From Escherichia coli (GTDB lineage: Bacteria > Pseudomonadota > Gammaproteobacteria > Enterobacterales > Enterobacteriaceae): 64,000 nucleotides of DNA. The position numbers were made by a program, and so were the translations under genes. The notes below the pieces were generated by a model. It did no database searches, was not told the DNA's origin, and saw only the letters and a program-made list of their open reading frames with translations. Position 1 is the stretch's first letter; each line of letters begins with the position of its first letter. The DNA lies in the NCBI RefSeq assembly GCF_046105845.1, contig NZ_CP151004.1, one strand, 5' to 3'. Shown here one piece after another: positions 43,810-62,617 of the stretch.

Positions 43810-44794
43810 CATCCATCGCCAGTTCAAACGAATGCAGGCGCGCCTGGTGATCGAAAATCTGCCCGTTAACCATAATCTCATCGGCGTCGGTTTCGCGCAG
43901 GATCGACTGCAAGCCATGACGCACTTTCGCTTTATCACCCACCAGCGACATACTCAGCGCCTGCTGCACGCCATACTGCTCGGACGGTGACCAGAACTGA
44001 TCCATATTTTGAATCGGCGGCGGTAGTTGCCCGGTTTCGCCACGGCGCAGCTTCACAAAGGCTTGCTGCATTGAGGTAAAGAGAAATTCAGCGTCGCGGT
44101 TGCTGTCGGCGGCGATAATATTGATGCACACCATCGCATACGGTTTTTCCAGCCGTGCCGACGGTTTGAAGTTGCTGCGATAAAGATGCAGCGCCTGGAA
44201 CAACATATCCGGCGCGAAGTGTGAGGCAAACGCAAACGGCAGACCAAGCTGCGCCGCCAGTTGCGCGCTGTAAAGGCTGGAGCCTAACAACCACACGGGG
44301 ATTTTCTCGCCATAGCCCGGTACCGGGCGCACATGCGGATTGGGATCGCGGGCGTCAAACCAGTCCACCAGCTCCGCGACATCGCGGGGGAAATTATCAA
44401 TATCGCCGCTCATATGACGACGTAGAGCCATCATGGTTCGCTGGTCACTACCCGGAGCACGGCCCAGCCCCAAATCGATTCGCCCCGGATAGAGCGTATT
44501 AAGCGTGCCGAACTGTTCGGCGATCACCAATGGTGAGTGATTAGGCAACATCACGCCGCCAGACCCCAGATGCAGCGTAGTGGTATTCGCCGCCAGATAG
44601 CCAATCAAAACTGATGTTGCAGCACTGGCAATGCCGGTCATATTGTGGTGTTCTGCCAGCCAGTAGCGATGATAGCCGCGCTTTTCAGCCAGACGGGCGA
44701 GCTCGAGAGAGTGGGAGAACGCTTCCCGCGCTGAAGAGCCTTCGGGAATGGGGGCCAGATCGAGTAGCGAAAACGCAATGGTTTTATCAGTCAT
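43787..44794 (-). CDS. yhbW: Luciferase-like (LLM-class) flavin monooxygenase, 335 aa
   Basis: [62 protein letters not shown]. Confidence 0.9.
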
Positions 44795-44874
44795 AACAGC
44801 TCACTTTGTTACCGATTAATCTTTAATACTGCATTAAAGAGTAGTTAAAGTTGTTAACAAAGTGAGCTATTTAC

Positions 44875-45753
44875 TTAGGCTTGCAGCTCCAGCCCAGCCA
44901 GCCGCCGCCAGTAGCCGTTACAGTCGCTGTTTGCCGTCAACGGCAGTGGCGCAGCGCCATTTTCATTGGCGCGGAAGGCGTCGAGCATAGCGAAAGTGTC
45001 AGTCCCCTGCGGTGACAGACGAACCACATCAACCAGTCCCTGCATGGATGCCAGCTCGTTACCGAGGTTGTAAACGTAGCCGCTCATGGTCTGAATGCCG
45101 TTGAGTACAAACACTTGTTGGTTTTCCTGCGACAGCACGTTGCGCCCGTTCGGATACTTAATGCAGCAGGTTTCGCACTCATCTTTCGGGCGGTCTTCCG
45201 AACGCGCGGTAAAGCAGCGGGCGGAGTAGGCCAGCGGCAGATGACCGTAGCTCAGGACTTCCACTTCAAACTGGTTGCGAATGCCCAGCTCATCGCACTG
45301 ATTAAGCAGATTCACCAGCCAGTCGCGGGAAAGCTCCACCGGCATACACCAGCGCATCATGCCCTGTTTGAGCAATATTTTCAGCGTCACCGCGTTGTAG
45401 CAGTTCAGCGCGTGTCCGGCGACGAACGGTAGTTTGCGCTCAGCGCACATATTCACCACGCCGAGATCGCTGGCTTCAATCAGAAACTCACCGTTCTCAA
45501 CATAGCGTTTCAGTTCGCCCAGTTCAGAGGATGCCTGCACCAGCGCCAGCGTGGAGAGCACAATCTGCTTACCACTTCCGGCGAGTGATTTTGCCATCTC
45601 CAGCCAGTCGCCAACTTTGGTTGCCCGGCGCTTGCTGCATACCGCTTCACCAAGATAAATCACGTCGGCGCTGCTGGCGGCGGCCTGCTGATAAAATTCT
45701 TCCAGCGTCTCTTTTGGCCAGTACCACAGCACTGGCCCTAAGGAATATTTCAT
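44875..45753 (-). CDS. ubiV: U32-peptidase-family protein UbiV (YhbV), O2-independent ubiquinone biosynthesis
   Basis: ORF 44875..45771; conserved start MKYSLGPVLWYWPKETLEEFYQQAA at ATG 45751-45753; Cys cluster PKDECETCC. Confidence 0.88.
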   Translation of the reverse strand: MKYSLGPVLWYWPKETLEEFYQQAAASSADVIYLGEAVCSKRRATKVGDWLEMAKSLAGSGKQIVLSTLALVQASSELGELKRYVENGEFLIEASDLGVVNMCAERKLPFVAGHALNCYNAVTLKILLKQGMMRWCMPVELSRDWLVNLLNQCDELGIRNQFEVEVLSYGHLPLAYSARCFTARSEDRPKDECETCCIKYPNGRNVLSQENQQVFVLNGIQTMSGYVYNLGNELASMQGLVDVVRLSPQGTDTFAMLDAFRANENGAAPLPLTANSDCNGYWRRLAGLELQA

Positions 45754-45761
45754 TGCTTTTC

Positions 45762-46757
45762 TCACTGCCATTTACGGTGATACGCGCCAAGGGTGGTCTG
45801 CGTGCCTTCGGACATCGACCCGAGCGTCTCCATCCACGCGCTTTGCGGTATGAAGTTTTGCGGATCGGCCTTACAACGGTCGATAGCCTGACGCCAGACT
45901 TTCGCCACCTGGCTGACATACGCCGGGCTACGCTGGCGGCCTTCAATTTTCACCGAAGCAATATTCGCTGCCATTAACTCCGGCAGCAGTTCCAGGGTAT
46001 TGAGACTGGTGGGTTCTTCCAGCGCGTGATAGCGCTCGCCGTCCACCAGATAACGCCCTTTACACAGCGTCGGATAACCTGCGTTTTCGCCATCCTGATA
46101 ACGGTCGATCAGCACTTCGTTCAGGCGAGATTCCAGCCCCTGCGGCGTTTGCTGCCAGCGCACGAAACGGGCCGGAGAACACGCACCCACAGTGTTGGGC
46201 GACTCACCCGTCAGATACGACGACAGATAGCAACGCCCTTCCGACATAATGCACAGGCTGCCGAAAGCAAACACTTCCAGCGGGACAGGTGTGACCCGTG
46301 CCAGTTGTTTCACCTGATGAATCGACAACACGCGCGGCAGCACCACGCGGGCAACGTCAAAATGGCGATGATAAAAGTTAATCGCCTCTTCATTGGTCGC
46401 CGAAGCCTGCACTGACACATGACGCTCAATATGCGGGTAACGCTCGGCGGCGTACTCCAGCATGGCGAGGTCGGCGAGGATCAGCGCGTCGGCACCCAGC
46501 TGCGCCGCCATATCCACGGCGCGCTGCCAGCGGGCGTAACCGTCCGGGTGCGCAAAAGTGTTAATCGCGATGTGAAGTTTGCGGCGATGTTGATGGACAA
46601 AACTCACCGCTTCCTGCAATTTTTTCTCGGTAAAGTTAAGGCCGGCGAAGTGACGGGCATTGGTATCATCTTTTAGCCCGATATAAACAGCATCTGCGCC
46701 GTTTTCGATGGCCGCCTTAAGCGCCGGGAGATTTCCGGCAGGGCAGAGCAGCTCCAT
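45762..46757 (-). CDS. ubiU: U32-peptidase-family protein UbiU (YhbU)
   Basis: ORF 45762..46784; conserved start MELLCPAGNLPALKAAIENGADAVYIGL at ATG 46755-46757; Cys-rich FGSLCIMSEGRCYLSSYLTGESPNTVGACSPA. Confidence 0.88.
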   Translation of the reverse strand: MELLCPAGNLPALKAAIENGADAVYIGLKDDTNARHFAGLNFTEKKLQEAVSFVHQHRRKLHIAINTFAHPDGYARWQRAVDMAAQLGADALILADLAMLEYAAERYPHIERHVSVQASATNEEAINFYHRHFDVARVVLPRVLSIHQVKQLARVTPVPLEVFAFGSLCIMSEGRCYLSSYLTGESPNTVGACSPARFVRWQQTPQGLESRLNEVLIDRYQDGENAGYPTLCKGRYLVDGERYHALEEPTSLNTLELLPELMAANIASVKIEGRQRSPAYVSQVAKVWRQAIDRCKADPQNFIPQSAWMETLGSMSEGTQTTLGAYHRKWQ

Positions 46758-46965
46758 AATTTTTCCTGAAGGTTGCGCTATCAAAACGCAAAAATGTTAA
46801 CGAACTGGGATTTTAGTTAACCTTGCTGCGACAATTTTTGATTTAAGGCAGTTAAAGTTGTATTGGTGGTAGCAGCAATTTCATATGGAATTGTTGATTT
46901 ATACCGCTATGTTATTTTTCTGATATGGCAAAATAGGATGATTGTTGAAACAGGGAGTAAAACTC

Positions 46966-47490
46966 GTGTTGGATAAACTGCGTTCCCGTATTGTGCATTT
47001 GGGGCCATCTCTGTTGAGTGTACCGGTAAAACTGACGCCATTTGCGCTAAAACGTCAGGTTCTTGAGCAGGTCCTAAGCTGGCAATTCCGTCAGGCGCTG
47101 GATGATGGCGAGCTGGAGTTTCTTGAAGGCCGCTGGTTAAGTATTCATGTGCGTGATATTGACCTGCAATGGTTTACCTCGGTGGTGAATGGCAAACTGG
47201 TCGTTAGCCAGAACGCGCAAGCTGATGTGAGTTTTAGTGCCGACGCCAGCGATCTGCTGATGATTGCGGCGCGTAAACAAGATCCGGATACGCTCTTCTT
47301 CCAGCGTCGGCTGGTGATTGAAGGCGATACGGAGCTGGGGCTGTATGTGAAAAACCTGATGGACGCCATTGAACTGGAGCAAATGCCGAAAGCCTTACGC
47401 ATGATGCTGCTGCAACTGGCGGATTTTGTTGAGGCGGGAATGAAAACCGCGCCTGAAACCAAACAGACATCGGTAGGTGAACCATGCTAA
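46966..47490 (+). CDS. ubiT: SCP2-domain lipid-binding protein UbiT (YhbT), GTG start
   Basis: ORF 46942..47490; conserved N-terminus LDKLRSRIVHLGPSLLSVPVKLTPFALKRQVLEQ from GTG at 46966; divergent from ubiUV. Confidence 0.85.
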   Translation: MLDKLRSRIVHLGPSLLSVPVKLTPFALKRQVLEQVLSWQFRQALDDGELEFLEGRWLSIHVRDIDLQWFTSVVNGKLVVSQNAQADVSFSADASDLLMIAARKQDPDTLFFQRRLVIEGDTELGLYVKNLMDAIELEQMPKALRMMLLQLADFVEAGMKTAPETKQTSVGEPC

Positions 47491-47987
47491 TTCGAGTAGA
47501 AATTCCCATTGATGCGCCGGGTATTGATGCCCTGCTGCGTCGTTCATTCGAAAGTGATGCGGAAGCGAAGCTGGTTCACGATCTGCGTGAAGATGGCTTT
47601 CTGACGTTGGGGCTGGTGGCGACAGATGACGAAGGTCAGGTCATTGGCTATGTGGCATTTAGTCCGGTTGATGTGCAGGGCGAAGACCTGCAATGGGTCG
47701 GCATGGCACCGCTGGCGGTAGATGAAAAATACCGTGGACAGGGGCTGGCACGCCAACTGGTCTATGAAGGACTCGATTCGCTCAATGAGTTCGGCTATGC
47801 CGCAGTGGTGACGCTGGGCGATCCGGCGCTGTACAGTCGTTTCGGCTTTGAACTGGCGGCGCATCACGATCTGCGTTGCCGCTGGCCGGGCACTGAAAGC
47901 GCCTTCCAGGTACATCGTTTAGCGGATGACGCGCTGAACGGCGTAACCGGTCTGGTTGAGTATCACGAGCATTTCAATCGCTTTTAA
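47484..47987 (+). CDS. yhbS: GNAT-family N-acetyltransferase, 167 aa
   Basis: [62 protein letters not shown]; acetyl-CoA motif RGQGLARQL. Confidence 0.88.
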
Positions 47988-48276
47988 TCTCCGGGGGTTG
48001 CAGGCTGCTCAACAGCTCTGCAAACCCTGCGCCTTCCGCTACCAGACGCTCTTTTTGCCGTTTGGTCAGTTGCTTAACGCGATATTCCGCCCGTAGTGCC
48101 AGCGAACGATCGCCCACTGGCGCGGAAAACGCCAGCGTTAGTTCTCCTTTCCCGCGCAGTGCTTTCGCCCCTTTGCCGCTTTGGTGCTGCTGATAGCGGC
48201 GTTCGACATCTGTGGTGATCCCGGTATAAAGCTTATTGTCGGCGGTACGGATCAAGTAAAGAAACCAGGGTGTCAT
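47974..48276 (-). CDS. yhbQ: GIY-YIG domain protein, 100 aa
   Basis: [44 protein letters not shown] (YLIR...LYTGIT...R..H core). Confidence 0.88.
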
Positions 48277-48326
48277 CGTCTGCGTCGCATGTTAAGGTCA
48301 GGCCCACAGTATAAAAGAGAACAGCA

Positions 48327-48749
48327 ATGGAAACACTCACCGCCATCAGCCGTTGGCTGGCAAAACAACATGTTGTCACCTGGTGTGTGCAGCAGGAAGG
48401 GGAACTCTGGTGCGCTAATGCCTTTTATCTTTTTGATGCGCAGAAAGTCGCCTTCTACATTTTGACGGAAGAAAAAACGCGCCACGCGCAGATGAGTGGG
48501 CCGCAGGCGGCAGTTGCCGGAACGGTAAACGGTCAGCCGAAAACGGTAGCGTTAATTCGCGGCGTGCAATTTAAAGGCGAGATCCGCAGGCTTGAAGGTG
48601 AGGAAAGCGACCTCGCACGCAAGGCGTACAACTGTCGCTTTCCGGTTGCCAGAATGCTGTCGGCCCCGGTATGGGAAATCCGGCTCGATGAAATCAAATT
48701 CACCGACAACACGCTGGGCTTTGGTAAAAAAATGATTTGGCTACGTAAC

Positions 48750-48770
<21 letters not shown>
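48327..48770 (+). CDS. yhbP: Pyridoxamine 5'-phosphate oxidase-like FMN-binding protein, 147 aa
   Basis: [55 protein letters not shown]. Confidence 0.85.
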
Positions 48771-49280
<510 letters not shown>

Positions 49281-49281
49281 A

Positions 49282-50031
<750 letters not shown>

Positions 50032-50103
50032 TTATTCCCAAGAATTGATAGTGAGCGTAATATTCACGCGCTCAATTATCATAACTTATTCCTGGGGAAT
50101 GCT

Positions 50104-51144
50104 ATGACTGGTCAGTCTTCATCTCAGGCGGCAACGCCCATTCAGTGGTGGAAACCCGCGCTTTTCTTTCTCGTTGTCATTGCTGGTCTCTGGTATGTGA
50201 AATGGCAACCTTACTACGGCAAAGCGTTTACTGCTGCCGAAACCCACAGTATCGGTAAATCTATCCTTGCGCAGGCGGATGCTAATCCGTGGCAGGCGGC
50301 GTTGGATTACGCGATGATCTATTTCCTCGCGGTATGGAAAGCGGCGGTGCTGGGCGTACTGCTCGGGTCGTTGATTCAGGTGCTGATTCCGCGTGACTGG
50401 TTGCTGCGTACGCTTGGGCAATCGCGCTTTCGCGGCACGCTGCTGGGAACGCTGTTTTCGCTGCCGGGCATGATGTGTACCTGCTGTGCGGCTCCGGTCG
50501 CGGCGGGAATGCGTCGCCAACAGGTATCGATGGGCGGGGCGCTGGCATTCTGGATGGGGAATCCGTTGTTAAACCCGGCGACGCTGGTGTTTATGGGGTT
50601 TGTCCTCGGCTGGGGGTTTGCGGCGATTCGTCTGGTGGCGGGGCTGGTGATGGTGTTGCTGATTGCGACGCTGGTGCAAAAATGGGTACGTGAAACACCG
50701 CTAACGCAGGCACCGGTCGAAATTGACATACCGGAAGCGCAGGGCGGATTTTTTAGCCGCTGGGGCAGGGCGCTATGGACGCTTTTCTGGAGTACGATCC
50801 CGGTTTATATCCTTGCCGTACTGGTGTTGGGTGCCGCTCGCGTCTGGTTATTCCCCCATGCTGATGGTGCTGTCGATAACAGCCTGATGTGGGTGATTGC
50901 GATGGCGGTAGCGGGATGCTTGTTTGTCATTCCAACGGCAGCAGAAATTCCAATTGTACAAACGATGATGCTGGCAGGCATGGGAACCGCTCCGGCGCTG
51001 GCATTGTTGATGACGCTCCCGGCGGTGAGTTTGCCGTCACTGATTATGCTGCGCAAAGCGTTCCCGGCGAAAGCCTTATGGCTGACGGGGGCGATGGTGG
51101 CAGTGTCAGGTGTGATTGTCGGCGGGTTGGCGCTGTTGGCCTAA
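50104..51144 (+). CDS. yraQ: Predicted permease, 346 aa
   Basis: MTGQSSSQAATPIQWWKPALFFLVVIAGLWYVKWQPYYGK; multi-pass membrane protein with Cys cluster GMMCTCCAAP. Confidence 0.88.
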   Translation: MTGQSSSQAATPIQWWKPALFFLVVIAGLWYVKWQPYYGKAFTAAETHSIGKSILAQADANPWQAALDYAMIYFLAVWKAAVLGVLLGSLIQVLIPRDWLLRTLGQSRFRGTLLGTLFSLPGMMCTCCAAPVAAGMRRQQVSMGGALAFWMGNPLLNPATLVFMGFVLGWGFAAIRLVAGLVMVLLIATLVQKWVRETPLTQAPVEIDIPEAQGGFFSRWGRALWTLFWSTIPVYILAVLVLGAARVWLFPHADGAVDNSLMWVIAMAVAGCLFVIPTAAEIPIVQTMMLAGMGTAPALALLMTLPAVSLPSLIMLRKAFPAKALWLTGAMVAVSGVIVGGLALLA

Positions 51145-51178
51145 GATGTTGGATGCTCCTGAATACAGCACTGGACGG

Positions 51179-51215
51179 TCCCCTCTCCCCTTTGGGGAGA
51201 GGGTTAGGGTGAGGG
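51179..51215. repeat. GC-rich perfect hairpin plus canonical G-quadruplex motif between convergent yraQ and dolP
   Basis: ccctctcccc ttt ggggagaggg (10-bp perfect stem) then GGGG-aga-GGG-tta-GGG-tga-GGGG on the + strand; no U-tract. Confidence 0.6.
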
Positions 51216-51265
51216 GAACAGGTCGGCTAAGGTGTGAATATTTACTTCAACGACCGATCAATGGC

Positions 51266-51841
51266 TTATTTAATAAACGTAAACGCCGTGGTTACCCGCT
51301 TCACGCCGCTTACCCGGCTGGCAATATCTGCCGCCGCTTTCGCTTCACGTTCAGTCACTAGCCCCATCAGGAACACTTCACCGTTTTCGGTGGTCACTTT
51401 CACGTTGGACGATTTCACCAGGTCGCTGGTTAAGAGCTGCGAACGCACTTTGGTGGTGATCCACGTATCGTTAGACGCTTCGCCCAGACCAATCGGCTGG
51501 CCCTGACGAATCTCGTTATACACTTCGTTGGCACCGTCTACGCCCATAGCAATCTGTTTGGCGCGAGCCGAAAGTTCAGCGTTTGGTGACTGCCCAACCA
51601 GCAGCACTTTGCCCTGATACGCCGTGACATTAATACGGGTTTCTTTCTTAATCTGTTCGTCTTTCGACAATGCGCTGTTTACGCGCACTTCCAGGGTACC
51701 ATCGTCCACCTGGGTGCCGACACTGCGTGGGTCAGTTGCGGCTTTGGTACCTACAGCAGCGGTACCCACTACGGCAGCGGCAACACAACCTTGCAACAGC
51801 AGCGCGGAAAGAAGGACTGCGATTGGCGATAATGCCTTCAT
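51266..51841 (-). CDS. dolP: Dual-BON-domain outer-membrane lipoprotein DolP (YraP), 191 aa
   Basis: MKALSPIAVLLSALLLQGCVAAAVVGTAAVGTKAATDPRSVGTQVDDGTLEVRVNSAL (lipobox LQGC). Confidence 0.93.
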   Translation of the reverse strand: MKALSPIAVLLSALLLQGCVAAAVVGTAAVGTKAATDPRSVGTQVDDGTLEVRVNSALSKDEQIKKETRINVTAYQGKVLLVGQSPNAELSARAKQIAMGVDGANEVYNEIRQGQPIGLGEASNDTWITTKVRSQLLTSDLVKSSNVKVTTENGEVFLMGLVTEREAKAAADIASRVSGVKRVTTAFTFIK

Positions 51842-51850
51842 GTATTCTCC

Positions 51851-52441
51851 TTAAACATCCTGGTGAGGGAAAAGCGTGTTATCGATCAGATCGCACAGGC
51901 AATTTACCGTCAGCATATGCATTTCCTGAATGCGAGCACTACGATGCGAAGGAATGCGGATCTCCACATCCTGTGGCCCTAACAAACCTGCAAGTTCACC
52001 GCCGTCATAGCCGGTTAATGCCACAATGGTCATATCACGCGTAACGGCAGCTTCTACCGCTTTTACAATATCGCGGCTGTTGCCACGGGTGGAAATGGCT
52101 AACAATACATCCCCCGCATGACCCAGCGCCCGCACCTGTTTTGCATACACTTCATCATGTAAGCGATCGTTGGCAATCGCCGTTAAGACAACATTATCAG
52201 TATTTAGTGCAATGGCAGGTAAGCTGGGCCGCTCCGTTTCGAAACGGTTGATCATGCTGGCAGCAAAATGCTGTGCATTGGCAGCGGAAGTTCCATTACC
52301 ACAACAGAGGATTTTGTTGCCATTGAGCAGAGACTGAACCAGCGTCATGGCTGCACGGGAGATGGCATCCGGAAGCGCCTCTGCCGCCGCAATTTGAGTT
52401 TGAATGCTTTCAGTGAAGCAAGCTTTAATTCTTTCTTGCAC
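51851..52441 (-). CDS. diaA: DnaA initiator-associating protein DiaA (SIS domain), 196 aa
   Basis: [63 protein letters not shown]. Confidence 0.95.
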
Positions 52442-52460
52442 GCTAATCCTTAAACCTTAA

Positions 52461-52856
52461 TTATGAGTGGTCATTAAAGGCATCCTTAATCCACTCAACC
52501 TCATTCCCGGTGAAGGCTACCACATCGAACCGGCAATCCACAGTATCAAAACTCCCATTATGACGCGCGAGCCACAAGCGGGCAGTCTGTAATAATTTGT
52601 GTTGTTTGCTGCGGGTCACACTGGCTGCCGCGCCGCCATAAAGCGCAGAGCGGCGGTAACGCACCTCAACAAAAACGGTGGTCCGGCCTTCACGCATTAT
52701 CAGATCGATCTCGCCGCCACGCTCGTTCACGTTAGCGGCGATAAACCGCAGTCCTTTGCCTTCCAGCCAGCGACGCGCTTGTGCTTCCCACGCATCGCCG
52801 GTCTGTTTGGTGGTTAACTGGCGGGGACTACCTGACCTTGTTGGTACTGTAGCCAT
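52461..52856 (-). CDS. yraN: UPF0102 family protein YraN, 131 aa
   Basis: [57 protein letters not shown]; start lies about 43 nt inside the lpoA 3' end. Confidence 0.88.
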
Positions 52857-54850
52857 GATAACTTCCTGTTAATCACGCAATCCGGGTTAGCCGTCAGACT
52901 TCCGGTATTACCGTTGATTTCAAAACCCTGAACCTGGCGCATTTGTGAGAAATGATTTGTCAACGACCAGGCATCGACGCCCATCGCATACATGCGAGCC
53001 AGCGAATAATCGTTGTTCACCGCGCTGAGCGCCTGCTGCATTAACGGCAGATTACCGCCTGCCAGCATCGGGATTTCGCTGTACTGCAAGCCTTCCATCT
53101 CCAGACGGAAATCCGGGCCTGCGGTGCCTTGTGCGCTGCGGGAACTGGCGTACAGCGTTGCACCGCTCTGGCTACCGTTACGCATGGCGATCATCGGTTT
53201 GATAAAAGCGATTTCACCCGGCGTTGCCACAATGTAGACCGCATCGACACGACCGCCATTATTGGTGAACTGGTCATCGGTTGGCGTGGTTTGCAGCGTT
53301 GGATTGTTGGTCGTCATGCCGGAGTCGGTTGTCGCTCTGGGAGTAATCGGGCTACCCGTTAAAGCAATACCAGAACCGCCGTTAACACCCGCGCGTAATT
53401 CGCTGGTGGAACCAAATTTTTGTTGCAGAACGGTGCCGCCACCCAGTTTCTGCCACTCTTGCGCAAACGCATTGGCTACGCGATCGCCCAATGAACTACG
53501 TGGGATCAGCACCAGCGGCGCTTGTTTACCCTGGTCACGAATATGACGCGCAGCATCGCGCGCTTCGTCTTCTGGTGAAAGCGCGAAGTAACAAATATTG
53601 ACGCGGTTTTCGATATTCTCCGGCTGGTTCAGTGCCAGCACGTTCAGCGGGGTGTTGCTCTTCAGCAACTCTTCAACGTTATTTTTCAGCAACGGGCCGA
53701 CCACAATACTCGCGCCATCCTGTTGAACCTGGTTGAGGATCTGGCTAAGTGGTTGTGATGATGTATCGTAGATTTTCAGCTCTGCGGATGGATTCGCAGG
53801 TGCGCTTACCGCTGCGGTGGTTGCCGCCGGGGCGTTTACAGGCACCGGCTGGGCCGCAGGTTGTTCACCGGTCAGATCGCTAACCGAGGCTTGTGCCGGG
53901 CTGGCAACGCCATCCACGGTTTGCGGCTGAGGTTGTTCTGCTACGTCTGCGGCAGGTGCGGCAGCTACCTGAGTCGCCACTGGCTGAGTGCCGATATTTT
54001 TCGCCGCTTCAAAGCCTTGCTGAATAGTGCGACCAAATACCGCTGCCTGGCCATTCAGTGGCAACAGCAGGGCGATTTTGTTGGTCGATGCGGGTTTAAA
54101 CGCTTTTACGTTAACCAACTGCGTTGGCAGCATTTTCGCGCCCGGGTTGTTCGGATAACGTTTCTGCCAGTCGGCGATCCCGGCTTTCATCATGTCGGGA
54201 TCGTTACGGTTATCAAACCAGATGCGCTGCAGATCCAGCCAGCCTTGCAGAATATTTTCGTCGGCATTGATCACCAGCGTATTCGCCTGTTCCTGAGTCA
54301 TGGAGGAGAGCGCCTGCCAGGTGGCGTCAATATTCTGCTGCTTTTCTTTCGCGCCGAGCAGCGGTTCCTGAGCAATTAACGCGCGCAGTAAATCAATGGA
54401 AGGACGCCCCTGGCTGGCATCGATTTTTGCCTGCCAGTAACGCGCTTGCTGGTTTTGTTCTAAATCTGCAGGTGTGATTTTCGCCAGCAAGTTTTGCGCG
54501 CCAGCAAAATCTTTCTGCGCCAGTTTAATCTCTGCCGCCAGCAGTGTTTTCTCGCGACGCTGAGAATCGTTCAGTTCTTGCGGTAGTTGGTTAAACAACT
54601 CCACCGCCTGTCCGGTTTTACCTTCTTTCACCAGTGCACGAATGGCGAGTAATTGCCAGTTGATCCTGGTATCATCAGAACTTTGCTGCATCTGTTGCAG
54701 GTAAAAGGCAGAATCAGCCTGCGCCGTGCCCTGCATATAGGCAGTGGACTGATCGGGAGTATGGGTGCCACAACCGGCGAAAATCAGGGCTGCCAGAACA
54801 ACAGGCAGACAACGCGCGGCTTTCAAACGAGAAAATGTTGAGGGTACCAT
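52814..54850 (-). CDS. lpoA: PBP1A activator lipoprotein LpoA, 678 aa
   Basis: ORF 52814..54880; conserved start [28 protein letters not shown] (lipobox) at ATG 54848-54850. Confidence 0.93.
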
Positions 54851-54914
54851 AATGTATCCAGTGATATTTTTTTTACGCAATGCTCAATATTAAATCGGCA
54901 ATACGGACGACACA

Positions 54915-55775
54915 ATGAAACAACACCAATCGGCGGATAATTCTCAGGGCCAGCTTTACATTGTACCGACGCCAATCGGCAATCTGGCGGATATCACCCA
55001 GCGTGCGTTGGAGGTATTACAGGCCGTTGATCTGATTGCCGCCGAGGATACGCGTCACACCGGTTTATTGCTGCAACATTTTGGGATTAATGCTCGGTTG
55101 TTTGCGCTGCACGACCATAACGAACAACAAAAAGCCGAAACGCTGCTGGCGAAGCTGCAAGAGGGGCAAAACATTGCGCTGGTTTCCGATGCCGGAACGC
55201 CGCTAATTAACGATCCTGGCTACCATCTGGTGCGTACCTGCCGTGAAGCGGGGATTCGCGTGGTGCCGCTACCCGGGCCGTGTGCTGCTATCACTGCGTT
55301 AAGCGCCGCGGGTTTACCATCCGATCGTTTTTGTTATGAAGGCTTTTTACCTGCCAAATCAAAAGGCCGCCGTGATGCGCTAAAAGCCATTGAAGCGGAG
55401 CCGCGCACGCTGATTTTTTATGAATCTACCCACCGTCTGTTAGATAGCCTGGAAGATATCGTTGCGGTATTAGGCGAATCCCGCTACGTGGTTCTGGCGC
55501 GTGAGCTGACCAAAACCTGGGAAACCATTCACGGCGCGCCCGTTGGCGAGCTGCTGGCGTGGGTCAAAGAAGATGAAAACCGTCGCAAAGGCGAAATGGT
55601 ACTGATTGTCGAAGGCCATAAAGCACAGGAAGAAGACTTACCCGCCGATGCCCTGCGCACGCTGGCGCTGCTACAGGCAGAACTGCCGCTGAAAAAAGCG
55701 GCGGCGCTGGCGGCAGAAATTCACGGCGTGAAGAAAAATGCGCTATATAAGTATGCGCTGGAGCAGCAGGGGTAA
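54915..55775 (+). CDS. rsmI: 16S rRNA C1402 2'-O-methyltransferase RsmI, 286 aa
   Basis: [58 protein letters not shown]. Confidence 0.95.
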
Positions 55776-55790
55776 GCCTGCTGCTGGAAA

Positions 55791-56885
55791 TTACCTGACA
55801 ATAACCGTAATGGTAGCTGATGCTTTAAAAGGTCCGGTCGACAATACTCCACCGACCAGATTTACAGGATAAGCCTGAAAGTGTGTTGTTCCTGCTCCGG
55901 TTTTATCTAGCAGAATGATGCCTGGATTAAATGGAACATCTACTTGCCCTTTAGTCACATCCATAAGGCGGATACCAACATCAGGGACATCATCACTTTC
56001 ACGGCGTCTTGCGACTAAATTATATTGATTAACATAATCTGAACCTTCAATTTTCATATACAAGCTATTGTTAATTTGGGACATATCACCGCAATCATAG
56101 GTAATATCAAAGCTTACTGGAGTGTAACCTGTTGGCATCTGATTTTGTAGGGTGAAACGTTGAGCGCTAATAAATCCAAGATTTACATTAATGGTATCAC
56201 CTTGATTTATTTTGCAACTTTGAGGTACCGTAATTCGGCCTTGAATATAGATTTTAGCAATATCCTTAATGGGACGTGGTGCAGCAGAAGTACTTGTCCA
56301 CGCAGCCTGGACTGAAGCAATATGTGTTTCAGGGATATTCAGTTCACCCAAAAATGGCGTAGTGACGTATAGTGTAATCGTTGTATTTTTACCAATAGAA
56401 AAGTCTGATCCCCGAACATTGGCTGGGTCGGCCATGCACACACTATTGTTTTTGTTAGCATGGTAAGTACCAGTACCGTCTCTAAGCGGTGTATATGAAT
56501 TGCTTGGAACCATAACAGATGGATTACCAGGAATGTCGTTTATTTGGGTTTTAATATCCAGATTAGAATTCAGTCGATAGAAATCTCGTTCTTTACCTTG
56601 AGTTATTAATGCAGATGTTACTGTATAATACAGGTTAACTTTACTACCTGCCGGACAAGAGCAGTTTAAGGTGTAATTGCTCCCAATAGCTGAATTCTTT
56701 ACCACATAATCTTTGCCGGCAACATTATTATCTTGTGTCCAGTCCTCAGAAGCATCTGTCCGAAATTCACCTGTTCCTTCACAATCACCTGTTGCTGCCT
56801 TTACCGATGGGCTAAGTAACAGGGGGGAGACCACGGCAGCAATAGACAATAGTTGTTTAATCATTTTGAAACTCCCTAAAGACAC
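55791..56885 (-). CDS. yraK: Putative fimbrial adhesin/tip protein of the yra chaperone-usher operon
   Basis: MSLGSFKMIKQLLSIAAVVSPLLLSPSVKAATGDCEGTGEF (signal peptide; start could be the internal MIKQ); last gene of the usher operon. Confidence 0.85.
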   Translation of the reverse strand: MSLGSFKMIKQLLSIAAVVSPLLLSPSVKAATGDCEGTGEFRTDASEDWTQDNNVAGKDYVVKNSAIGSNYTLNCSCPAGSKVNLYYTVTSALITQGKERDFYRLNSNLDIKTQINDIPGNPSVMVPSNSYTPLRDGTGTYHANKNNSVCMADPANVRGSDFSIGKNTTITLYVTTPFLGELNIPETHIASVQAAWTSTSAAPRPIKDIAKIYIQGRITVPQSCKINQGDTINVNLGFISAQRFTLQNQMPTGYTPVSFDITYDCGDMSQINNSLYMKIEGSDYVNQYNLVARRRESDDVPDVGIRLMDVTKGQVDVPFNPGIILLDKTGAGTTHFQAYPVNLVGGVLSTGPFKASATITVIVR

Positions 56886-59398
56886 TTTGCCGAATCACGA
56901 ATAATGGGGGTAGTGATGTTCGCGCTATCGTTCAGACTAAACGTAAACTGGCATTGTTGGTTTATTCCACTTCCCCAGCGAACCTTCCAGGTTTGTGGTT
57001 TTTTATTAATGCCGGAGAGATAAATAACTCCAGCTTCATCGACAATACTTTGTTGGAATTGGCCTTCATTACTGGCAACAGCACCAAAAGGAATGGGCTT
57101 ACCTTGGACGTCAGTTAGTGCTAATAGCACTCTGTGACCGGTTTGGGCATTAAAATTTGCAACGACAGCGGCGCCCTGTCCTGGCACGACAATCTTTGCA
57201 GTCTCCTGGACATCTACATTATCCGGCATTGTAGTAGTGTCTAAGGCAATACGATTTTCCTGATAAGCCGTTAAATAAGGGATGACGGCGTAACCAAAGT
57301 AATCGGTGGCAATACCAGGGTAATTTTTAACCCGAATATTAGATGCACCCTGGGTATCAATTACGGCAAATGTATTACCCAGCGGTTGTGAGAGAGTCAC
57401 CCCATGGGGGTGTGCGACAATTCCACCTGAAAGACCATAGCTGAACTGGCGACTGTTTGACGTGTAATCATAGTTGGCGTTAACAGTGCCATAAGCAGAG
57501 CGGTAACTACCAGAAAGCGTACTGCCGTTATTATTATTTTCCTGGTCCATTCGTTGTTTAAAGCTGTAACTTAATCGGTTGTCATCAAGGAAAGAACCGG
57601 TAATGCCAGTCTCATATTGAGTTGAACGGTATTTTTCATCAGTGACACGAAACGTAGCTTGTGCATTAGGTAACCAACGATCCAGAGGCAGACTAATACT
57701 AAAAAAGATTGCCCTATCACTATCGCGATCGGAATAATCTGTGAATTGTCCACTCACGCTGTAGCTGATGCCGGCAAGATAGCCGTTCAGTCCGGCAGAA
57801 TAATTGCGATCATTTTGTTCTGCTCCCCAGTATTCTCGTTGTGCACCTGAAATATAAAAACTGAGATTATCAGTCAGCGTTTGGTTAACGTTGAAAATCG
57901 CTTCGCTGCGTTGGCGATTGTTTACATTAATATCACGTTGGTTTGCGTCGGCAAAGGTAAAAAAAACTGAGTTGGAATAGCGCGAGTAACTAAGAGAAAG
58001 GCTTGTTCCTGTTTCGGGTATATCTTTAATATATTGAAAACGTAAACCTTCCCCGGTAAATTTTTCTTTATTTTCTAACTTCGTTTTGGCATAAGTTAAA
58101 TCAACGGAAAGTGCGCCCAAAATACTCAATGTGCTACCGATGCCTAATGCTGCTGCTTGATAATCCTTGGATCCAGTTACCCCACCATAAAGAGTGAAAA
58201 TATTAGTAAGGCCGTAAAATGCTGTGCCTTCGATGAACTCTGGTTCTTTACTATTAGATGACGGGTCTGCACGAAATCGCCCTGCTGTCATGCTATATAA
58301 AAGATGGCCTGGCCGTTGCATAACAGGAAGTGCTGAAAACGGCTGAGTAAATTGGCGAACGGTACCATCGGCTTCTTCAATTGTAACGTCTAAATCACCG
58401 CTAAATGAGGATGGATAGAGATCGTTGATTTCGAATGCTCCCGCCGGGACATTGCTTTGATAAATTGTATAGCCATTCTGGCGGATGGTGACTATTGCGC
58501 TGGTATTGGCAATCCCACGGATAATCGGTGCAAAACCTCGTAAGCTATTCGGTAACATGTTCTCGTCAGAATAAATTCTGGCACCCGTAAACTGAACGCT
58601 GGAAAAAATTGTGCCATCAGTGGCGCTTTCACCAAGCACTAATTGCGACTTTAAACTCTTAATATCACGCTGCAACCAACTATTAATACTATCCCAGCGA
58701 GTCTCATTACTGCTATGTGTCCACGTGGAGTAATTACGCAACCGCCATGGGCCGATATTGACTCCATTTTGCATATTGAGATAAAACCTTTCATTCTTTT
58801 CGCTGTTACTATAATAACTGTTCGAGCCACTAAAACTGTAATTGGTAAACAATACTGGAATACCATGATCCCACCTGGCGGGATCAACATAACCAGAAGG
58901 GTCACGCCGCAGGGCAATTTGTGGAATGTCCAGGATGAGAGTGCTATGGTTGAGGTCTATCTTTGTTTTGCTTCCAGGTACGGTTTTGGATAAATCTGTT
59001 ATCAGGGCGTTGTCATCAAGAGTATTTAGTGAATTTATTTCGTCAACTTTAAAACCCAATTCGCGTAAAAGACCAACGGTAAGCTGTGGGCGAATTTCTC
59101 CATTATCATCTATAGCAAAAGTGATTTTTCTCTGAGTCACCTTTTTTTTATTGATAACGATCTCAACATCATAATCACCGGGACTATGAGTATTTTTACC
59201 GGAGAAAGCAGATAAATCGCTTGCCTTTTGACCACTCTTTGTTGTTTCCAGCAATGAGGGATCAAAATAGTAATTGTCAGCAATGGCATGAAGAGGGGAC
59301 AGAACTCCACCAGTAATAAGAACAGGTAATACTGTTTTTAACCAGCAGGAAAGTGGTTTCATAACAGGTAAAGAGATGCATTTTATTTTGGTTTTCAT
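56876..59398 (-). CDS. yraJ: Fimbrial outer-membrane usher protein, 840 aa
   Basis: MKTKIKCISLPVMKPLSCWLKTVLPVLITGGVLSPLHAIADNYYFDPSLLE; usher-size beta-barrel protein; C-terminal Cys pair. Confidence 0.92.
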   Translation of the reverse strand: MKTKIKCISLPVMKPLSCWLKTVLPVLITGGVLSPLHAIADNYYFDPSLLETTKSGQKASDLSAFSGKNTHSPGDYDVEIVINKKKVTQRKITFAIDDNGEIRPQLTVGLLRELGFKVDEINSLNTLDDNALITDLSKTVPGSKTKIDLNHSTLILDIPQIALRRDPSGYVDPARWDHGIPVLFTNYSFSGSNSYYSNSEKNERFYLNMQNGVNIGPWRLRNYSTWTHSSNETRWDSINSWLQRDIKSLKSQLVLGESATDGTIFSSVQFTGARIYSDENMLPNSLRGFAPIIRGIANTSAIVTIRQNGYTIYQSNVPAGAFEINDLYPSSFSGDLDVTIEEADGTVRQFTQPFSALPVMQRPGHLLYSMTAGRFRADPSSNSKEPEFIEGTAFYGLTNIFTLYGGVTGSKDYQAAALGIGSTLSILGALSVDLTYAKTKLENKEKFTGEGLRFQYIKDIPETGTSLSLSYSRYSNSVFFTFADANQRDINVNNRQRSEAIFNVNQTLTDNLSFYISGAQREYWGAEQNDRNYSAGLNGYLAGISYSVSGQFTDYSDRDSDRAIFFSISLPLDRWLPNAQATFRVTDEKYRSTQYETGITGSFLDDNRLSYSFKQRMDQENNNNGSTLSGSYRSAYGTVNANYDYTSNSRQFSYGLSGGIVAHPHGVTLSQPLGNTFAVIDTQGASNIRVKNYPGIATDYFGYAVIPYLTAYQENRIALDTTTMPDNVDVQETAKIVVPGQGAAVVANFNAQTGHRVLLALTDVQGKPIPFGAVASNEGQFQQSIVDEAGVIYLSGINKKPQTWKVRWGSGINQQCQFTFSLNDSANITTPIIRDSAKCL

Positions 59399-59450
59399 TA
59401 TTCCCTTATTTCCTTATTCCCTGTCATATGTATAAGTTTTGTATAAATAA

Positions 59451-60143
59451 TTATGGCAAAGTAGATGTATATGTATCCGTATTACCGCCATAGTCATTAA
59501 TGGCTGCCCATTTCACGATGTTTTCTGAAACTAATGGCAATGGTAATTGCTTATGTTCACCCGGTGCAATAAATTCTATTTTATCGGTAAAGTCGGTTTT
59601 TCCTACAGCCAGTCCTGAAAAAACAACGTAATATGCCGAAGGATTATATATCTCCAGTTGGTTGTTCTTCCTTGAGAATTTTAGGCCTTTATAGGCATCT
59701 GAAGGTCTACCGTCCATTTCTGATGGTCTGTAAAAGAGTTTAATGCGTGTTTTAAATACTAAAGTAAGTAGGTTCTTATCTTGCGTTTCTTTTTTATCGA
59801 CAGCAGGAATTGCACGGACGTTAATATAAAAAAGTGATTCTTTATCTCTCGGTAGATTGCCATCGGTTTTAATGATACGCAATGAAGAGTTGTCTCCGGC
59901 ATCAAGACGAAATAGCGGAGGGGTAATAATAAAAGGGCCGCGAGAAGAGTCATAGATATTTTCAACCCACGATTGTAATAAATATGGTGGTTTATCACTT
60001 CGATTAGTGACCGGCAATGCAGCTTCTTTTTTACTACCATCATAAACTACACGCGTTCTTTCCAGAAGGATTCCACCAGCCAGACTCTGGTTCACCCAGC
60101 CAGCTAATAGAAAAAGTATTGCAAACGATTTTTTAATCTTCAT
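59451..60143 (-). CDS. yraI: PapD-like periplasmic fimbrial chaperone, 230 aa
   Basis: [62 protein letters not shown]. Confidence 0.92.
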
Positions 60144-60232
60144 CTTCTGTTACCGCTACGAAATAAAATTGTCTCTTTAACAGCAGACCGCTAAAGAGAC
60201 AAAATAAAGGATTATGAACTAATGACTAGTTA

Positions 60233-60805
60233 TCAACGATAATCAAGAGTTACATCCACAGTAGCATTAGCTTCACCGGGTTTGATTTTATCGGCTGTTG
60301 TGGTTGACACATAGTAAGCCGCTAAATCTAAATTCATCGTGGAACCAGTAATTGGGAAAGATATCTTTGGAACACTAAGTTTGTTAATTGCCATAGGTGT
60401 TTGAGCATCTTTTTCAATCCGAATACCAACACCTGTAGCCGCGGTATCTGGGTCCATACTTGTAACAGCAACTAACTCATTGTTATCACCGGTAGTTGCT
60501 CCGTTACGCGTTTCCAGCCATAACTGGAAAGACGCATCTTTAGTACCATCAATGTGATCCCAGGCTACCGTTGGGCAGTTTTTCAACGGAATAGTGAAAG
60601 GGATCGTAGGGGATTTATCCCCTTTAAACTTAAACTGATTAGCGGCATAGTGACCTAATTCAACATAAACTGTATCACCATTCGCAAATTCACAGACAGT
60701 GCCAAGAATTTCACCCGTGAATTCAATTTTTCCATCGGTTGCGGAGGCGCTACCGGCAAAAAGCGCCAGCAGGCCAGCGGCAACTGTCTTAGCTACTTTA
60801 CTCAT
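60233..60805 (-). CDS. yraH: Fimbrial major subunit (pilin), 190 aa
   Basis: MSKVAKTVAAGLLALFAGSASATDGKIEFTGEILGTVCEF (signal peptide, conserved Cys pair); first gene of the usher operon. Confidence 0.9.
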   Translation of the reverse strand: MSKVAKTVAAGLLALFAGSASATDGKIEFTGEILGTVCEFANGDTVYVELGHYAANQFKFKGDKSPTIPFTIPLKNCPTVAWDHIDGTKDASFQLWLETRNGATTGDNNELVAVTSMDPDTAATGVGIRIEKDAQTPMAINKLSVPKISFPITGSTMNLDLAAYYVSTTTADKIKPGEANATVDVTLDYR

Positions 60806-61285
60806 AAGATAACCTTAGTCCTTGTAACTAGTACTTCGAATAAATATGAAATGTAAGATTCTTTTCAACAACAGAAACGATTATACCTACTGAAGCATGG
60901 AGTGGATAAAAAATAGTCATTTTTAAGAATATATTTATATTTCCTGAAGCTATTTAAAAACCATATATATTAGTATTGATTATGTTATGATGTGAATGTA
61001 GTAAGACTAAAAGGGTAATTATAAGTATAATTCAATGGGTTGATAGCAGTTATTGTAATGATAATCACTAATATTGACTTTTGTAGTTATGAGTTGTGAA
61101 CTGTAAGAATAAAATGTAATATGTTATGACGTTTAATAGTTGATGTTGTTAAATATAAGCTTAATTAAACTATATGATATTGAAAAAGTGGGGATGGATA
61201 ACTAAAACTATTTTGCCTGTATATACGAGCAGTGGAAGGGGTTTGCACAGGAAGCCCTTTCTTCTGTTGAACAGGCCTCCCCTAC
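60806..61285 (-). promoter_or_regulatory. Extremely AT-rich upstream/regulatory region of the yraHIJK fimbrial operon
   Basis: About 480 bp of long A/T tracts (e.g. atatatattagtattgattatgttatgatgtgaatg); no convincing ORF; typical of nucleoid-protein-silenced fimbrial promoters. Confidence 0.45.
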
Positions 61286-61403
61286 GATGGTTGCAGAACG
61301 GGCGTTCTTCTGCGAGTGCTCTGACACGTTATCGATAGCCTTCACTGGCCGTGAATCAGACGATTATCAATACGAGTTAAGAGAATATTTGACAATGTCA
61401 TGT
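61286..61403 (-). pseudogene. Relic of a mannose-family PTS operon: EIIB start (19 codons) joined out of frame to an EIID-like fragment
   Basis: Minus strand from ATG 61401-61403 reads MTLSNILLTRIDNRLIHGQ* (EIIB-Man hallmark RIDxRLIHGQ); the next frame reads VKAIDNVSEHSQKNARSATI, about 80 percent nucleotide-identical to agaD 62874-62950 (VKAIDKVRENSQMIARSATI). Confidence 0.6.
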
Positions 61404-61451
61404 TTTTATTTCCTATCATCCATTTCACCTTTATTTGGTTTATCAGAGGGC

Positions 61452-61482
61452 AATAAAAAAGGCAGATAATTAATTATCTGCC
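61452..61482 (-). terminator. Intrinsic terminator on the minus strand about 370 nt downstream of agaI
   Basis: Perfect palindrome ggcagataattaattatctgcc (61461-61482) followed on the minus strand by a U-run (complement of aaaaaa 61455-61460). Confidence 0.6.
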
Positions 61483-61852
61483 TGATGTGTCATGCTTTTT
61501 TTGCATCCGTTCTCATGTTTTTACCAGAAAATATCTTTGTGTGCCGAAGTTAAAACGTAAGTAATTTCACCGTTTTGCACATAGTGGCAGCAACCTTCAA
61601 TAATGATTCTGGCATTGCAAGCAAAATGATTGACCCATTCGGTCGCTGTGTGTCCGCTTTTTTCGTTGGCGGGTTTTGTTCTGATTACTGAACAACGTAA
61701 CGTGTTTATCTATAAATTAAACAGTGAACATAATTTCATTTTTAAGTGAAATTATGTTCAAGTTGATTACAGATTACTTAACTTAAAATATAGTTAATGA
61801 AGTTAAAGTATTGGTTTTGGCGTATTAGTCGTATTTCTGATAAAGAAAGTGG

Positions 61853-62617
61853 TTATGCTTTGCTTCTCTCTATTAAACAAATAAAGTTACTGTGCAGCCA
61901 TAAAAACGAAGCCGGGATAGCGGTGGAGACTTTAGCCGTGAGAAAACGTTCTGTCGCATCCTGCTTTCCTTCGCCAGTCACCAGTAACAAAACTTCGCGG
62001 GCACTGAGAATATCCTTCAGGCCTAAGGTGATCCCACGAATCACGGGACGGCCCGCGGTTTTTAACATCTCATGTTGCTGTGTTCTGGCATCAAGTTGAC
62101 TGATATGGCAGGCCGGTTGCAGGCTTTCTCCCGGTTCGTTCAGCCCAAGATGACCGTTTTTCCCCAACCCGAGAACGCATAAATCCAGACCGCCTTTGCG
62201 CGCAATCAGGTTCGTTACCCGTTCGCACTCTGTCTCATTTATCTCTTCGGAGCGAAAGCTGATGAGCTGGTCTTCACGCAGCCCCAGCGGCTGCACGATA
62301 TGCTGTTGTAGGAAAGTTTCGCAGGTGCCAGGCATCGTTAATGGCAGATCCACCCATTCGTCGAGCTTCACGAAGGTGAGCTGGCTGACATCAACCTGCT
62401 GCTGGTGGATTTTTTCTACCAGATAATGATACGTCAGTAATGGCGTGGCTCCGGTCGCCAGGCAAATCACGGCATCCGGTTTGCTACGGATCACGGCCAA
62501 TAAATATTCGCTGGCACGTTCACTTAACGCCGTATAGTTTTCAACTTGTTGAAGGGTTTGCACAGGATGAAATTCCTTAAGTAAAGAGGCACCGCCAGAC
62601 GCGGTGCCTCGTTCCAT
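61853..62617 (-). CDS. agaI: Galactosamine-6-phosphate deaminase/isomerase-like protein (NagB family), 254 aa
   Basis: MERGTASGGASLLKEFHPVQTLQQVENYTALSERASEYLLAVIRSKPDAVICLATGATPLLTYHYLVEK. Confidence 0.9.
   Translation of the reverse strand: MERGTASGGASLLKEFHPVQTLQQVENYTALSERASEYLLAVIRSKPDAVICLATGATPLLTYHYLVEKIHQQQVDVSQLTFVKLDEWVDLPLTMPGTCETFLQQHIVQPLGLREDQLISFRSEEINETECERVTNLIARKGGLDLCVLGLGKNGHLGLNEPGESLQPACHISQLDARTQQHEMLKTAGRPVIRGITLGLKDILSAREVLLLVTGEGKQDATERFLTAKVSTAIPASFLWLHSNFICLIERSKA

Follow-up and report, generated by a model that had tools for sequence, protein, structure and literature searches.

This study concerns a chaperone-usher fimbrial operon in a 64-kb stretch of Escherichia coli DNA (RefSeq assembly GCF_046105845.1, contig NZ_CP151004.1); the whole stretch is hereafter called the window, and all coordinates are window positions. 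Four consecutive open reading frames (ORFs) on the minus strand at 55791-60805 encode a pilin, a chaperone, an usher, and an adhesin, in this order. The first (60233-60805, minus strand) encodes a major pilin of 190 aa homologous to YraH, with a Pfam Fimbrial domain (PF00419, E = 8e-26) and a signal peptide that reads ...AGSASA/TDG in the translation. The second (59451-60143, minus strand) encodes a periplasmic PapD-type chaperone of 230 aa, a homolog of YraI, in which PapD_N (E = 9e-39) and PapD_C (E = 5e-11) were found together with the motifs RTRVVY and RIKLFYRP. The third (56876-59398, minus strand) encodes an outer-membrane usher of 840 aa, a homolog of YraJ, with PapC_N, Usher (E = 5e-194, matched at full length), and PapC_C domains. 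The fourth (55791-56864, minus strand) encodes a two-domain tip adhesin homologous to YraK, 357 aa long from its ATG, or 364 aa from an alternative GTG start further upstream at 56885; here the Fimbrial domain covers residues 205-356 only. The Pfam scores of all four proteins far exceed the curated cut-offs, and the set thus has both PapD domains, all three usher domains, and PF00419 with signal peptides in the first and last genes.

The operon lies between agaI and rsmI. The rsmI gene (54915-55775, plus strand) is convergent with the operon and ends 15 nt from the adhesin stop; the next intact gene upstream is agaI, whose stop is at 61853, leaving a gap of 1,047 bp to the pilin start. An earlier note on this DNA, made from the sequence alone, had described a complete pilin-chaperone-usher-adhesin operon in the yra position adjoining rsmI, and both points are borne out by the ORFs, their domains, and their neighbors. 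The name that it gave, yraHIJK, fits the position at the agaI-rsmI junction and the homology of the genes, but not their sequence, as the proteins are only 46-65% identical to those of K-12. The operon is an unnamed and rare member of the Yra fimbrial family that branches deeply and lies at the usual locus of that family. More specifically, it is probably a minimal chaperone-usher operon of the Yra family (gamma* group) that appears to be functional, carried as a rare allele of a lineage (lineage B, described below) distinct from that of K-12 yraHIJK.

In BLASTP comparisons with the K-12 Yra proteins, identity was 52% for the pilin, 65% for the chaperone, 57-58% for the usher, and 46% for the adhesin, and sensitive blastn gave approximately 67.5% DNA identity between the usher gene and yraJ. 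When 5,426 complete E. coli genomes were searched by megablast with positions 55700-61900 as the query, the operon was found in one, strain MEW, isolated from an ivory gull (99.6% identity). The remaining genomes match only the terminal 72-77 nt of this query, i.e., rsmI. A K-12-type operon is carried by 3,264-3,523 of the 5,426 genomes at 97.8-100% identity (the lower count refers to genomes with at least 80% coverage), and about 35% of E. coli have no yra at all. A blastn search of the complete genomes with the usher gene found no intermediates between the 99.8% match in MEW and the approximately 67.5% match to yraJ. Proteins exactly identical to those of the window are encoded by some tens of contigs in public data; these contigs are labelled E. 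coli throughout and have generic names only. The proposal that this is the same allele as K-12 yraHIJK was rejected, given approximately 67% nucleotide and 46-65% amino acid identity and the presence in 1 of 5,426 genomes.

The DNA on either side of the operon is ordinary for E. coli. The aga-side flank is 98.3% identical to K-12 and the rsmI-lpoA flank 97.5%, and the RsmI proteins are 100% identical. Homology to K-12 extends up to the rsmI stop itself (55775) at one end and breaks off at 61872, within the final 20 nt of agaI, at the other. The operon genes are saturated at synonymous sites relative to K-12 (proportion of synonymous differences, pS, 0.69-0.84), versus a synonymous divergence (dS) of 0.084 for rsmI and 0.062 for agaD.

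The same interval stands out in base composition. The GC content of the operon is 41.2%, versus 51.7% for window positions 1-55775, and no other 5,015-bp segment falls below 46.4% (mean 51.6, standard deviation 1.6). At third codon positions, the GC content is 29-37% in the operon genes versus 54-62% in rsmI, lpoA, agaI, and agaD. For the upstream region at 60806-61285 it is 29.4%; among 1,106 other 480-bp segments none is at or below 30%, and the minimum is 35.6%. The low-GC block reported in the earlier note was therefore seen correctly and lies far beyond chance, as these window-wide scans hold no comparable stretch. A separate patch of about 41% GC at 42402-43809, between mtr and yhbW, carries two genes, one for a 176-aa protein (minus strand) and one for a 239-aa protein (plus strand) with an L,D-transpeptidase-like HG..S.GC motif; these are not known from the mtr-yhbW position in K-12.

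The two parts of the adhesin have diverged to different extents: the N-terminal receptor domain (approximately residues 24-200) is 38% identical to that of K-12 YraK and the C-terminal pilin domain 62%. A profile of 22 family members matched one PDB entry only, LpfD (5AFO), over the full length (E = 4e-24). An AlphaFold2 model (mean predicted local distance difference test score, 87.5) gave LpfD as the best Foldseek match (E = 2e-19; template modeling score, 0.54), followed by CupB6, FimH, and PapG. An Open Biology paper also linked the adhesins of the Yra/Ush group to LpfD or CupB6 (PMC5717340). By these matches, the protein is an LpfD-like tip adhesin with a receptor domain and a pilin domain. 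Because the receptor domain shares only 38% identity with that of K-12 YraK, the binding target is probably different.

Alleles at the agaI-rsmI junction

In E. coli, the agaI-rsmI junction occurs in at least four states: empty, with 49 bp between the two genes; filled by a K-12-type yra operon; filled by genes for a LysR regulator and an MBL hydrolase; or filled by the window allele. Outside E. coli, we found Yra-like operons directly beside rsmI in Escherichia sp. MOD1-EC7003 and E. whittamii, in Citrobacter (C. sedlakii, C. amalonaticus, and Citrobacter sp. MGH106), and in Klebsiella oxytoca, K. spallanzanii, Superficieibacter, and an unclassified Enterobacteriaceae metagenome-assembled genome (MAG). 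Trees of the four proteins contain two deep lineages that conflict with the species tree. Lineage A includes K-12, E. whittamii, and Citrobacter sp. MGH106; lineage B includes the window, MOD1-EC7003, C. sedlakii, Klebsiella, Superficieibacter, and the MAG. Escherichia and Citrobacter are thus each split between the two lineages.

The Yra fimbrial type is defined by usher phylogeny together with locus position (Wurpel et al., 2013; PMC3559732). In pairwise comparisons, the nearest E. coli usher is YraJ (57-58%, versus 36% for UshC), but in the tree of Yra-like ushers the window usher falls on a separate deep branch with those of MOD1-EC7003, C. sedlakii, and Klebsiella. The closest sampled relative of the window operon is the allele of MOD1-EC7003, with identities of 84% for the usher, 86% for the chaperone, 72% for the pilin, and 67% for the adhesin; the ushers from other genera are 63-67% identical to that of the window. 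Between the window and MOD1-EC7003, dS is 0.82-0.86 for the operon, close to the 0.79 of rsmI, and K-12 and E. whittamii give a comparable range (0.67-0.88).

The MOD1-EC7003 allele is also present in a draft genome labelled Shigella flexneri (GCA_037034325.1), whose RsmI and LpoA are 96.5% and 93% identical to those of E. coli; these values suggest that the draft belongs with Escherichia sp. MOD1-EC7003 and not with Shigella or E. coli. A single metagenome sample, SRR26188682 (L029 and L008), holds the window allele together with a third lineage-B allele, so that one community contains more than one distinct Yra allele. This third allele is 72% identical to the window in the usher and 67% in the adhesin.

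The earlier note had likened the operon to horizontally acquired fimbriae, a description that has to be qualified. The evidence consists of a sharp swap of alleles between conserved flanks, and the locus does show traits expected of a mobile island, namely, presence/absence polymorphism, conflict between gene trees and the species tree, and the contrast in dS between operon and flanks. On the other side, Yra-like operons sit beside rsmI in at least four genera, no integrase, transposase or insertion sequence, or tRNA target was found among the ORFs, and flanking direct repeats are not above chance. A donor search of 5.8 billion proteins and approximately 100,000 species representatives found nothing nearer than 67% identity for the adhesin and 84% for the usher. 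These patterns look like those of an old resident position at which alleles have been replaced, and not those of a recent mobile island.

The comparison of the two E. coli carriers points in the same direction. Window and MEW differ at 9 of the 5,015 nt of the cassette (99.82% identity) versus 70 of 4,840 nt in the flanks (98.4-98.7%), and because of this contrast, we favor exchange of the whole allele by recombination in the flanks. A related observation is that, over 44000-55775, the identity of the window to any complete E. coli genome does not exceed 98.8%. In the history that we propose, the yra locus would be old in Enterobacteriaceae, a minor E. coli lineage would have acquired or retained a lineage-B allele, and the allele would move between backgrounds through homologous recombination in the flanks.

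The genes do not appear to be decaying in either carrier, as all four frames are intact in both the window and MEW. Relative to MOD1-EC7003, the ratio of nonsynonymous to synonymous divergence (dN/dS) is 0.09 for the chaperone, 0.10 for the usher, and 0.26-0.27 for the pilin and adhesin. These values indicate purifying selection, weaker on the exposed subunits.

The upstream region and candidate control elements

The earlier note had placed a 480-bp AT-rich control region upstream of the pilin gene. The composition stands, but the gap to agaI is 1,047 bp long and the proposed outer boundary at 61285 coincides with the relic of a gene; the 480 bp are therefore the AT-rich part of a longer gap. 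We delimit this part as a non-coding region of 474 nt (60806-61279) with 28.9% GC and TpA steps three times as frequent as the window average. In the 12 alleles measured, the equivalent 450 bp upstream have 25-41% GC.

When the 220 nt preceding the pilin start were aligned for 12 alleles, almost nothing proved to be conserved besides two elements, a 17-nt box and a -10 hexamer. The box, ATAAATATATTCTTAAA in the window (60922-60938, minus strand; approximately -65 to -49), follows the pattern ATAAATWNWWTCYNAAA and is a candidate activator or anti-silencer site. It has 11 positions that are invariant among the 12 aligned alleles and is also present in a 13th (L029). The pattern has one match in the window, versus 0.00 expected, and occurs once in each Yra-like locus with sufficient upstream sequence, in every case on the strand of the operon; none of nine non-Yra chaperone-usher loci has it. 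The only non-Yra match in the 28 loci fetched is ATAAATAAATTCCGAAA at 5538-5554 (minus strand) of the E. coli SE15 locus, 308 nt upstream of yadN, in operon orientation and with a CACAAT hexamer 39 nt downstream; yadN is the first gene of the Yad operon, which is repressed by H-NS (PMC13245861).

The hexamer, TATAAT at 60880-60885 (minus strand), is a predicted -10 element that would place the transcription start near 60873 and give a 5' untranslated region of about 68 nt. At the -35 position the window has TATCCA, which matches poorly, and no allele has a good -35. A TATAAT-like hexamer (at least 4/6 matches, mostly 6/6) lies 35-39 nt past the box in the 12 alleles; the exception is Kluyvera, in which the top-scoring hexamer is at 32 nt and an alternative, TATTAT, is near 37 nt. 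Neither the sequence between box and hexamer nor the -35 position is conserved. This layout fits an activator-dependent sigma-70 promoter with a start near 60873.

As to what may bind the box, published sites of RcsB heteromers provide a lead. The RcsA-RcsB box reads TaAGaa/tatTCctA, the RcsB half of the BglJ-RcsB motif reads wwTTCykA, and BglJ-RcsB sites are centered at -57 to -79 (-57 at leuO), usually with the RcsB half facing the promoter (PMC3950696). The right, promoter-proximal half of the Yra box, WWTCYNA, fits both tatTCctA and wwTTCykA in 13/13 Yra alleles, and the position corresponding to k is G or T in 12 of the 13 instances tabulated by hand (the 12 aligned alleles and yadN). The center of the box, approximately -57.5 relative to the predicted start, lies within the range of about -57 to -68 expected of RcsB-heteromer sites. 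As a pattern match, the promoter-proximal half looks like an RcsB half-site, although yra is absent from the BglJ-RcsB targets listed in PMC3950696.

Two hairpins may further shape the transcripts. A 15-bp stem-loop followed by a T-run (60169-60202, minus strand; folding free energy -21 kcal/mol, z -2.5) separates the pilin and chaperone genes, and a strong hairpin is found in the same place in 9/9 folded alleles (z -2.5 to -8.3) despite differing sequence. It may act as an intra-operon attenuator or as a stabilizer of the mRNA 3' end. An arrangement of this kind is expected where pilin is made in excess, by comparison with other fimbrial operons. At the other end, a 9-bp G+C-rich hairpin (55762-55785; -17 kcal/mol) is common to the operon end and the convergent rsmI, with one arm within the 3' coding end of rsmI. 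MOD1-EC7003 retains it by paired changes (CAGCAGG/CCTGCTG to CAACAGG/CCTGTTG), and it is a putative bidirectional terminator.

Silencing by H-NS is likely for the window allele, as predicted from its composition and from the K-12 homolog. In a table of in vitro data on K-12 from genomic SELEX (systematic evolution of ligands by exponential enrichment; PMC3946193), the agaI-yraH spacer carries an HNS flag. According to PMC4128348, which cites Korea et al. (2010), Yra is cryptic but functional, and it has been described as expressed in some clinical settings (PMC6033998). The window allele has the AT-richness of H-NS targets (29% GC upstream, 41% in the operon, and 52% elsewhere, with TpA steps three-fold enriched), and 60806-61279 may serve as a platform for the binding of H-NS and StpA. 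There are no bracketing inverted repeats and no recombinase, and 60806-61285 contains zero GATC sites; without an invertible element or upstream GATC, phase variation of the fim or pap type is therefore unlikely.

The rest of the gap to agaI is a mosaic, which reads in operon direction as the agaI end segment, an unmatched stretch, a hairpin, a relic, and the AT-rich DNA. The left junction segment (61656-61872, minus strand) comprises the last 20 nt of agaI and about 200 nt downstream; it is 82.8% identical to the post-agaI sequence of E. whittamii and absent from K-12. The C-terminus of AgaI itself, FICLIERSKA*, is closer to that of E. whittamii (FICLIDRNKA*) than to that of K-12 (FICLINT*). 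Within this segment is a hairpin with 17-bp arms (61725-61760, minus strand). The next 170 nt or so (61484-61655, minus strand) have no usable start codon and no match by blastn or tblastx in the fetched loci or in complete E. coli genomes other than MEW; one frame of 61460-61655 (minus strand) resembles the C-terminus of a protein (...NGEITYVLTSAHKDIFW*). A perfect 12+12 palindromic hairpin followed by TTTTTT (61460-61483, minus strand), similar to an intrinsic terminator, lies upstream of the relic. A search of 55500-62100 against Rfam at a permissive threshold gave only a chance snoRNA-like match (E = 0.93), and no known RNA element or small RNA accounts for this hairpin.

The relic itself (61280-61401, minus strand; blastn and tblastx) is the start of an agaB-like gene for a phosphotransferase system (PTS) IIB component fused to a piece of an agaD-like IID gene. 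The first 19 agaB-like codons, with their ribosome-binding site, are joined at 61345 to an internal agaD-like piece of 66 nt. By blastn, the agaB part is 91.5% and the agaD part 80-86% identical to the resident genes, and tblastx pairs MTLSNILLTRIDNRLIHGQ with MTSPNILLTRIDNRLVHGQ of AgaB and VKAIDNVSEHSQKNARSATIVG with VKAIDKVRENSQMIARSATILG of AgaD. The intact resident agaB and agaD lie 1-3 kb away; the relic is that of a second aga-type PTS operon.

Alternative explanations and implications

The likeness to K-12 in locus, gene order, and gene length, the low GC, and the HNS flag on the K-12 spacer (PMC3946193) would all be expected if this were an ordinary E. coli yraHIJK, a horizontally acquired island silenced by H-NS, as the earlier note had read it. 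We give this literal reading little credence: its identity is refuted by the 46-65% protein identity, the saturated synonymous sites, and the occurrence in 1/5,426 genomes, and the lack of mobility genes or repeats and the synteny of the family across genera speak against an island. A recent transfer from Citrobacter, Klebsiella, or another enteric genus could be suspected from the C. sedlakii, Klebsiella, and Superficieibacter operons in lineage B, and the diverged aga relics upstream (80-91% identical) may be traces of foreign DNA that came with it. However, the nearest relative is within Escherichia (84% in the usher for MOD1-EC7003 versus 63-67% for other genera), and even this one stands at a species-level dS of 0.82-0.86, so that no sampled donor is close; in addition, the 200 nt after agaI are Escherichia-like (82.8% to E. 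whittamii), and the best non-self match of the adhesin among 5.8 billion proteins is 67%. Such a transfer is thus improbable.

A third possibility is that the operon is a decaying remnant, i.e., a cryptic pseudo-operon that is heading for loss and has no present function. Decay does occur elsewhere, as can be seen from the representatives of C. amalonaticus and Kluyvera genomosp. 3, in which the genes for usher and adhesin are split into fragments with the promoter box retained, and from a 293-aa usher fragment in some E. coli carriers. The reported crypticity of Yra in K-12 (PMC4128348) and the approximately 35% of E. coli without yra could be taken in the same way. For the window allele, however, we regard this as very unlikely, because both the window and MEW have all frames intact, dN/dS is 0.09-0.27, and the box, -10 hexamer, spacing, and post-pilin hairpin are conserved across genera. 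More weight is due to the possibility that the box is not a site for an activator but part of a core promoter (an alternative -10, or an A/T tract like that of an UP element) or a place where a nucleoid protein nucleates or bends the DNA. The TATAAA inside the box is -10-like, and the region is prone to H-NS binding. The AAATATATTCTTAAAAA of the box also resembles the UP-element consensus, AAAWWTWTTTTNNNAAA. Nevertheless, a canonical UP element would lie about 6 nt closer to the start than the box does, an A/T tract does not explain the invariant TC or the Y and K preferences, and the spacing to the downstream TATAAT is held at 35-39 nt; we therefore see the core-promoter account as possible but on the unlikely side.

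Several observations weigh against our own interpretation of an intact lineage-B operon under an activator-dependent and silenced promoter. Some E. coli carriers have truncated ushers, such as the 293-aa form. A generic sigma-70 scan gave 14 sites versus 18.5 expected in shuffled sequences and did not list the proposed promoter; it missed this conserved promoter because of the poor -35, and the scan is thus uninformative either way. For K-12, the promoter that Shimada et al. predicted (TTGATA-17-TCAAAT) is a different one and lies upstream of the box. The ATAAAT that forms the left half of the box is unlike an RcsA or RcsB half-site, and with this half unmatched, the RcsB reading rests on seven positions. 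Within the 480-bp region, the H-NS 10-mer TCGATAAATT has 0 matches within 2 mismatches versus 0.6 expected, so that the silencing argument for the window allele relies on composition. Furthermore, the sequences are compatible both with ancient retention and with import from an unsampled Escherichia relative.

Taken together, the lineage-B operon may work as follows. Under laboratory conditions, H-NS and StpA would silence the promoter through the 29%-GC DNA around it. The pilin ATG would follow the transcription start by about 68 nt, and the sigma-70 promoter, good in its -10 but poor in its -35, would depend on a factor bound at the box centered near -57. The post-pilin hairpin would keep the mRNA of the pilin above that of the chaperone, usher, and adhesin. 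All four proteins would be exported via Sec; the chaperone would cap the subunits, the adhesin would prime the usher, and the pilin would then polymerize beneath the adhesin via donor-strand exchange.

These findings have practical consequences. Annotation based on position would name this operon yraHIJK and transfer to it what is known of K-12, and adhesin typing by nucleotide identity (yra present or absent) will miss alleles of this kind. The conserved layout of box, -10, and hairpin amid diverged sequence also provides a cheap handle on what activates a family that has been called cryptic since 2010. More broadly, the locus illustrates how the adhesin repertoire of E. coli may vary without mobile elements, by the swapping of whole-operon alleles older than species between conserved flanks. 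Two linked ideas that go further are speculative, and we hold them as rather doubtful: that the box is a cross-genus Yra switch (perhaps shared with Yad) at which RcsB and a partner that reads ATAAAT counteract H-NS, and that the two lineages represent a trans-species polymorphism in receptor binding. If true, the former would tie envelope-stress signaling to the expression of "cryptic" fimbriae, and the latter would mean that the two yra lineages predate the Escherichia species and have been kept side by side through recombination.

Comparison with known systems

The window operon and K-12 yraHIJK share the position between agaI and rsmI, the order of the four genes, and an AT-rich upstream spacer, and the products are nearly identical in length (190, 230, 840, and 357 aa in the window versus 194, 231, 838, and 363 aa in K-12). 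K-12 yraHIJK also has the promoter box, the -10 hexamer, and the post-pilin hairpin. They differ in the intergenic region (1,047 bp with gene relics in the window versus 400 bp in K-12) and in the terminator at the end of the operon, and belong to separate deep lineages.

Ush (ushABCD, ECSF_0165 type) has the same four-gene architecture, belongs to the same gamma* usher group, and was reported to be closely related to YraJ, the two being mutually exclusive (PMC5717340). However, Ush lies between mrcB and fhuA, its usher and chaperone are 36% and 35% identical to those of the window, and its pilin and adhesin are not alignable. Identification of the operon as Ush fimbriae was rejected based on the 36% usher identity and the different locus. 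LpfD of E. coli LF82 (PDB 5AFO) has, like the window adhesin, an N-terminal receptor domain and a C-terminal pilin domain. The two proteins are only 21% identical, lpf operons have more genes and occupy other loci, and the LpfD ligand is not transferable to the window adhesin.

Among regulated promoters, those repressed by H-NS and activated by BglJ-RcsB or RcsA-RcsB (leuO, bgl, and wza) are the nearest parallel. They share with the yra promoter an asymmetric site with an RcsB-type half on the promoter-proximal side and a center near -57 (leuO P2), as well as an AT-rich target, which is probably bound by H-NS in the case of yra; the distal half of the Yra box, ATAAAT, does not match the RcsA half, TaAGaa. 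Finally, the Yra-like operon of MOD1-EC7003 has flanks that are not those of E. coli (93% identity in LpoA) and a spacer of 393 bp without relics, but is the same as the window operon in its gene lengths and in its place between agaI and rsmI.

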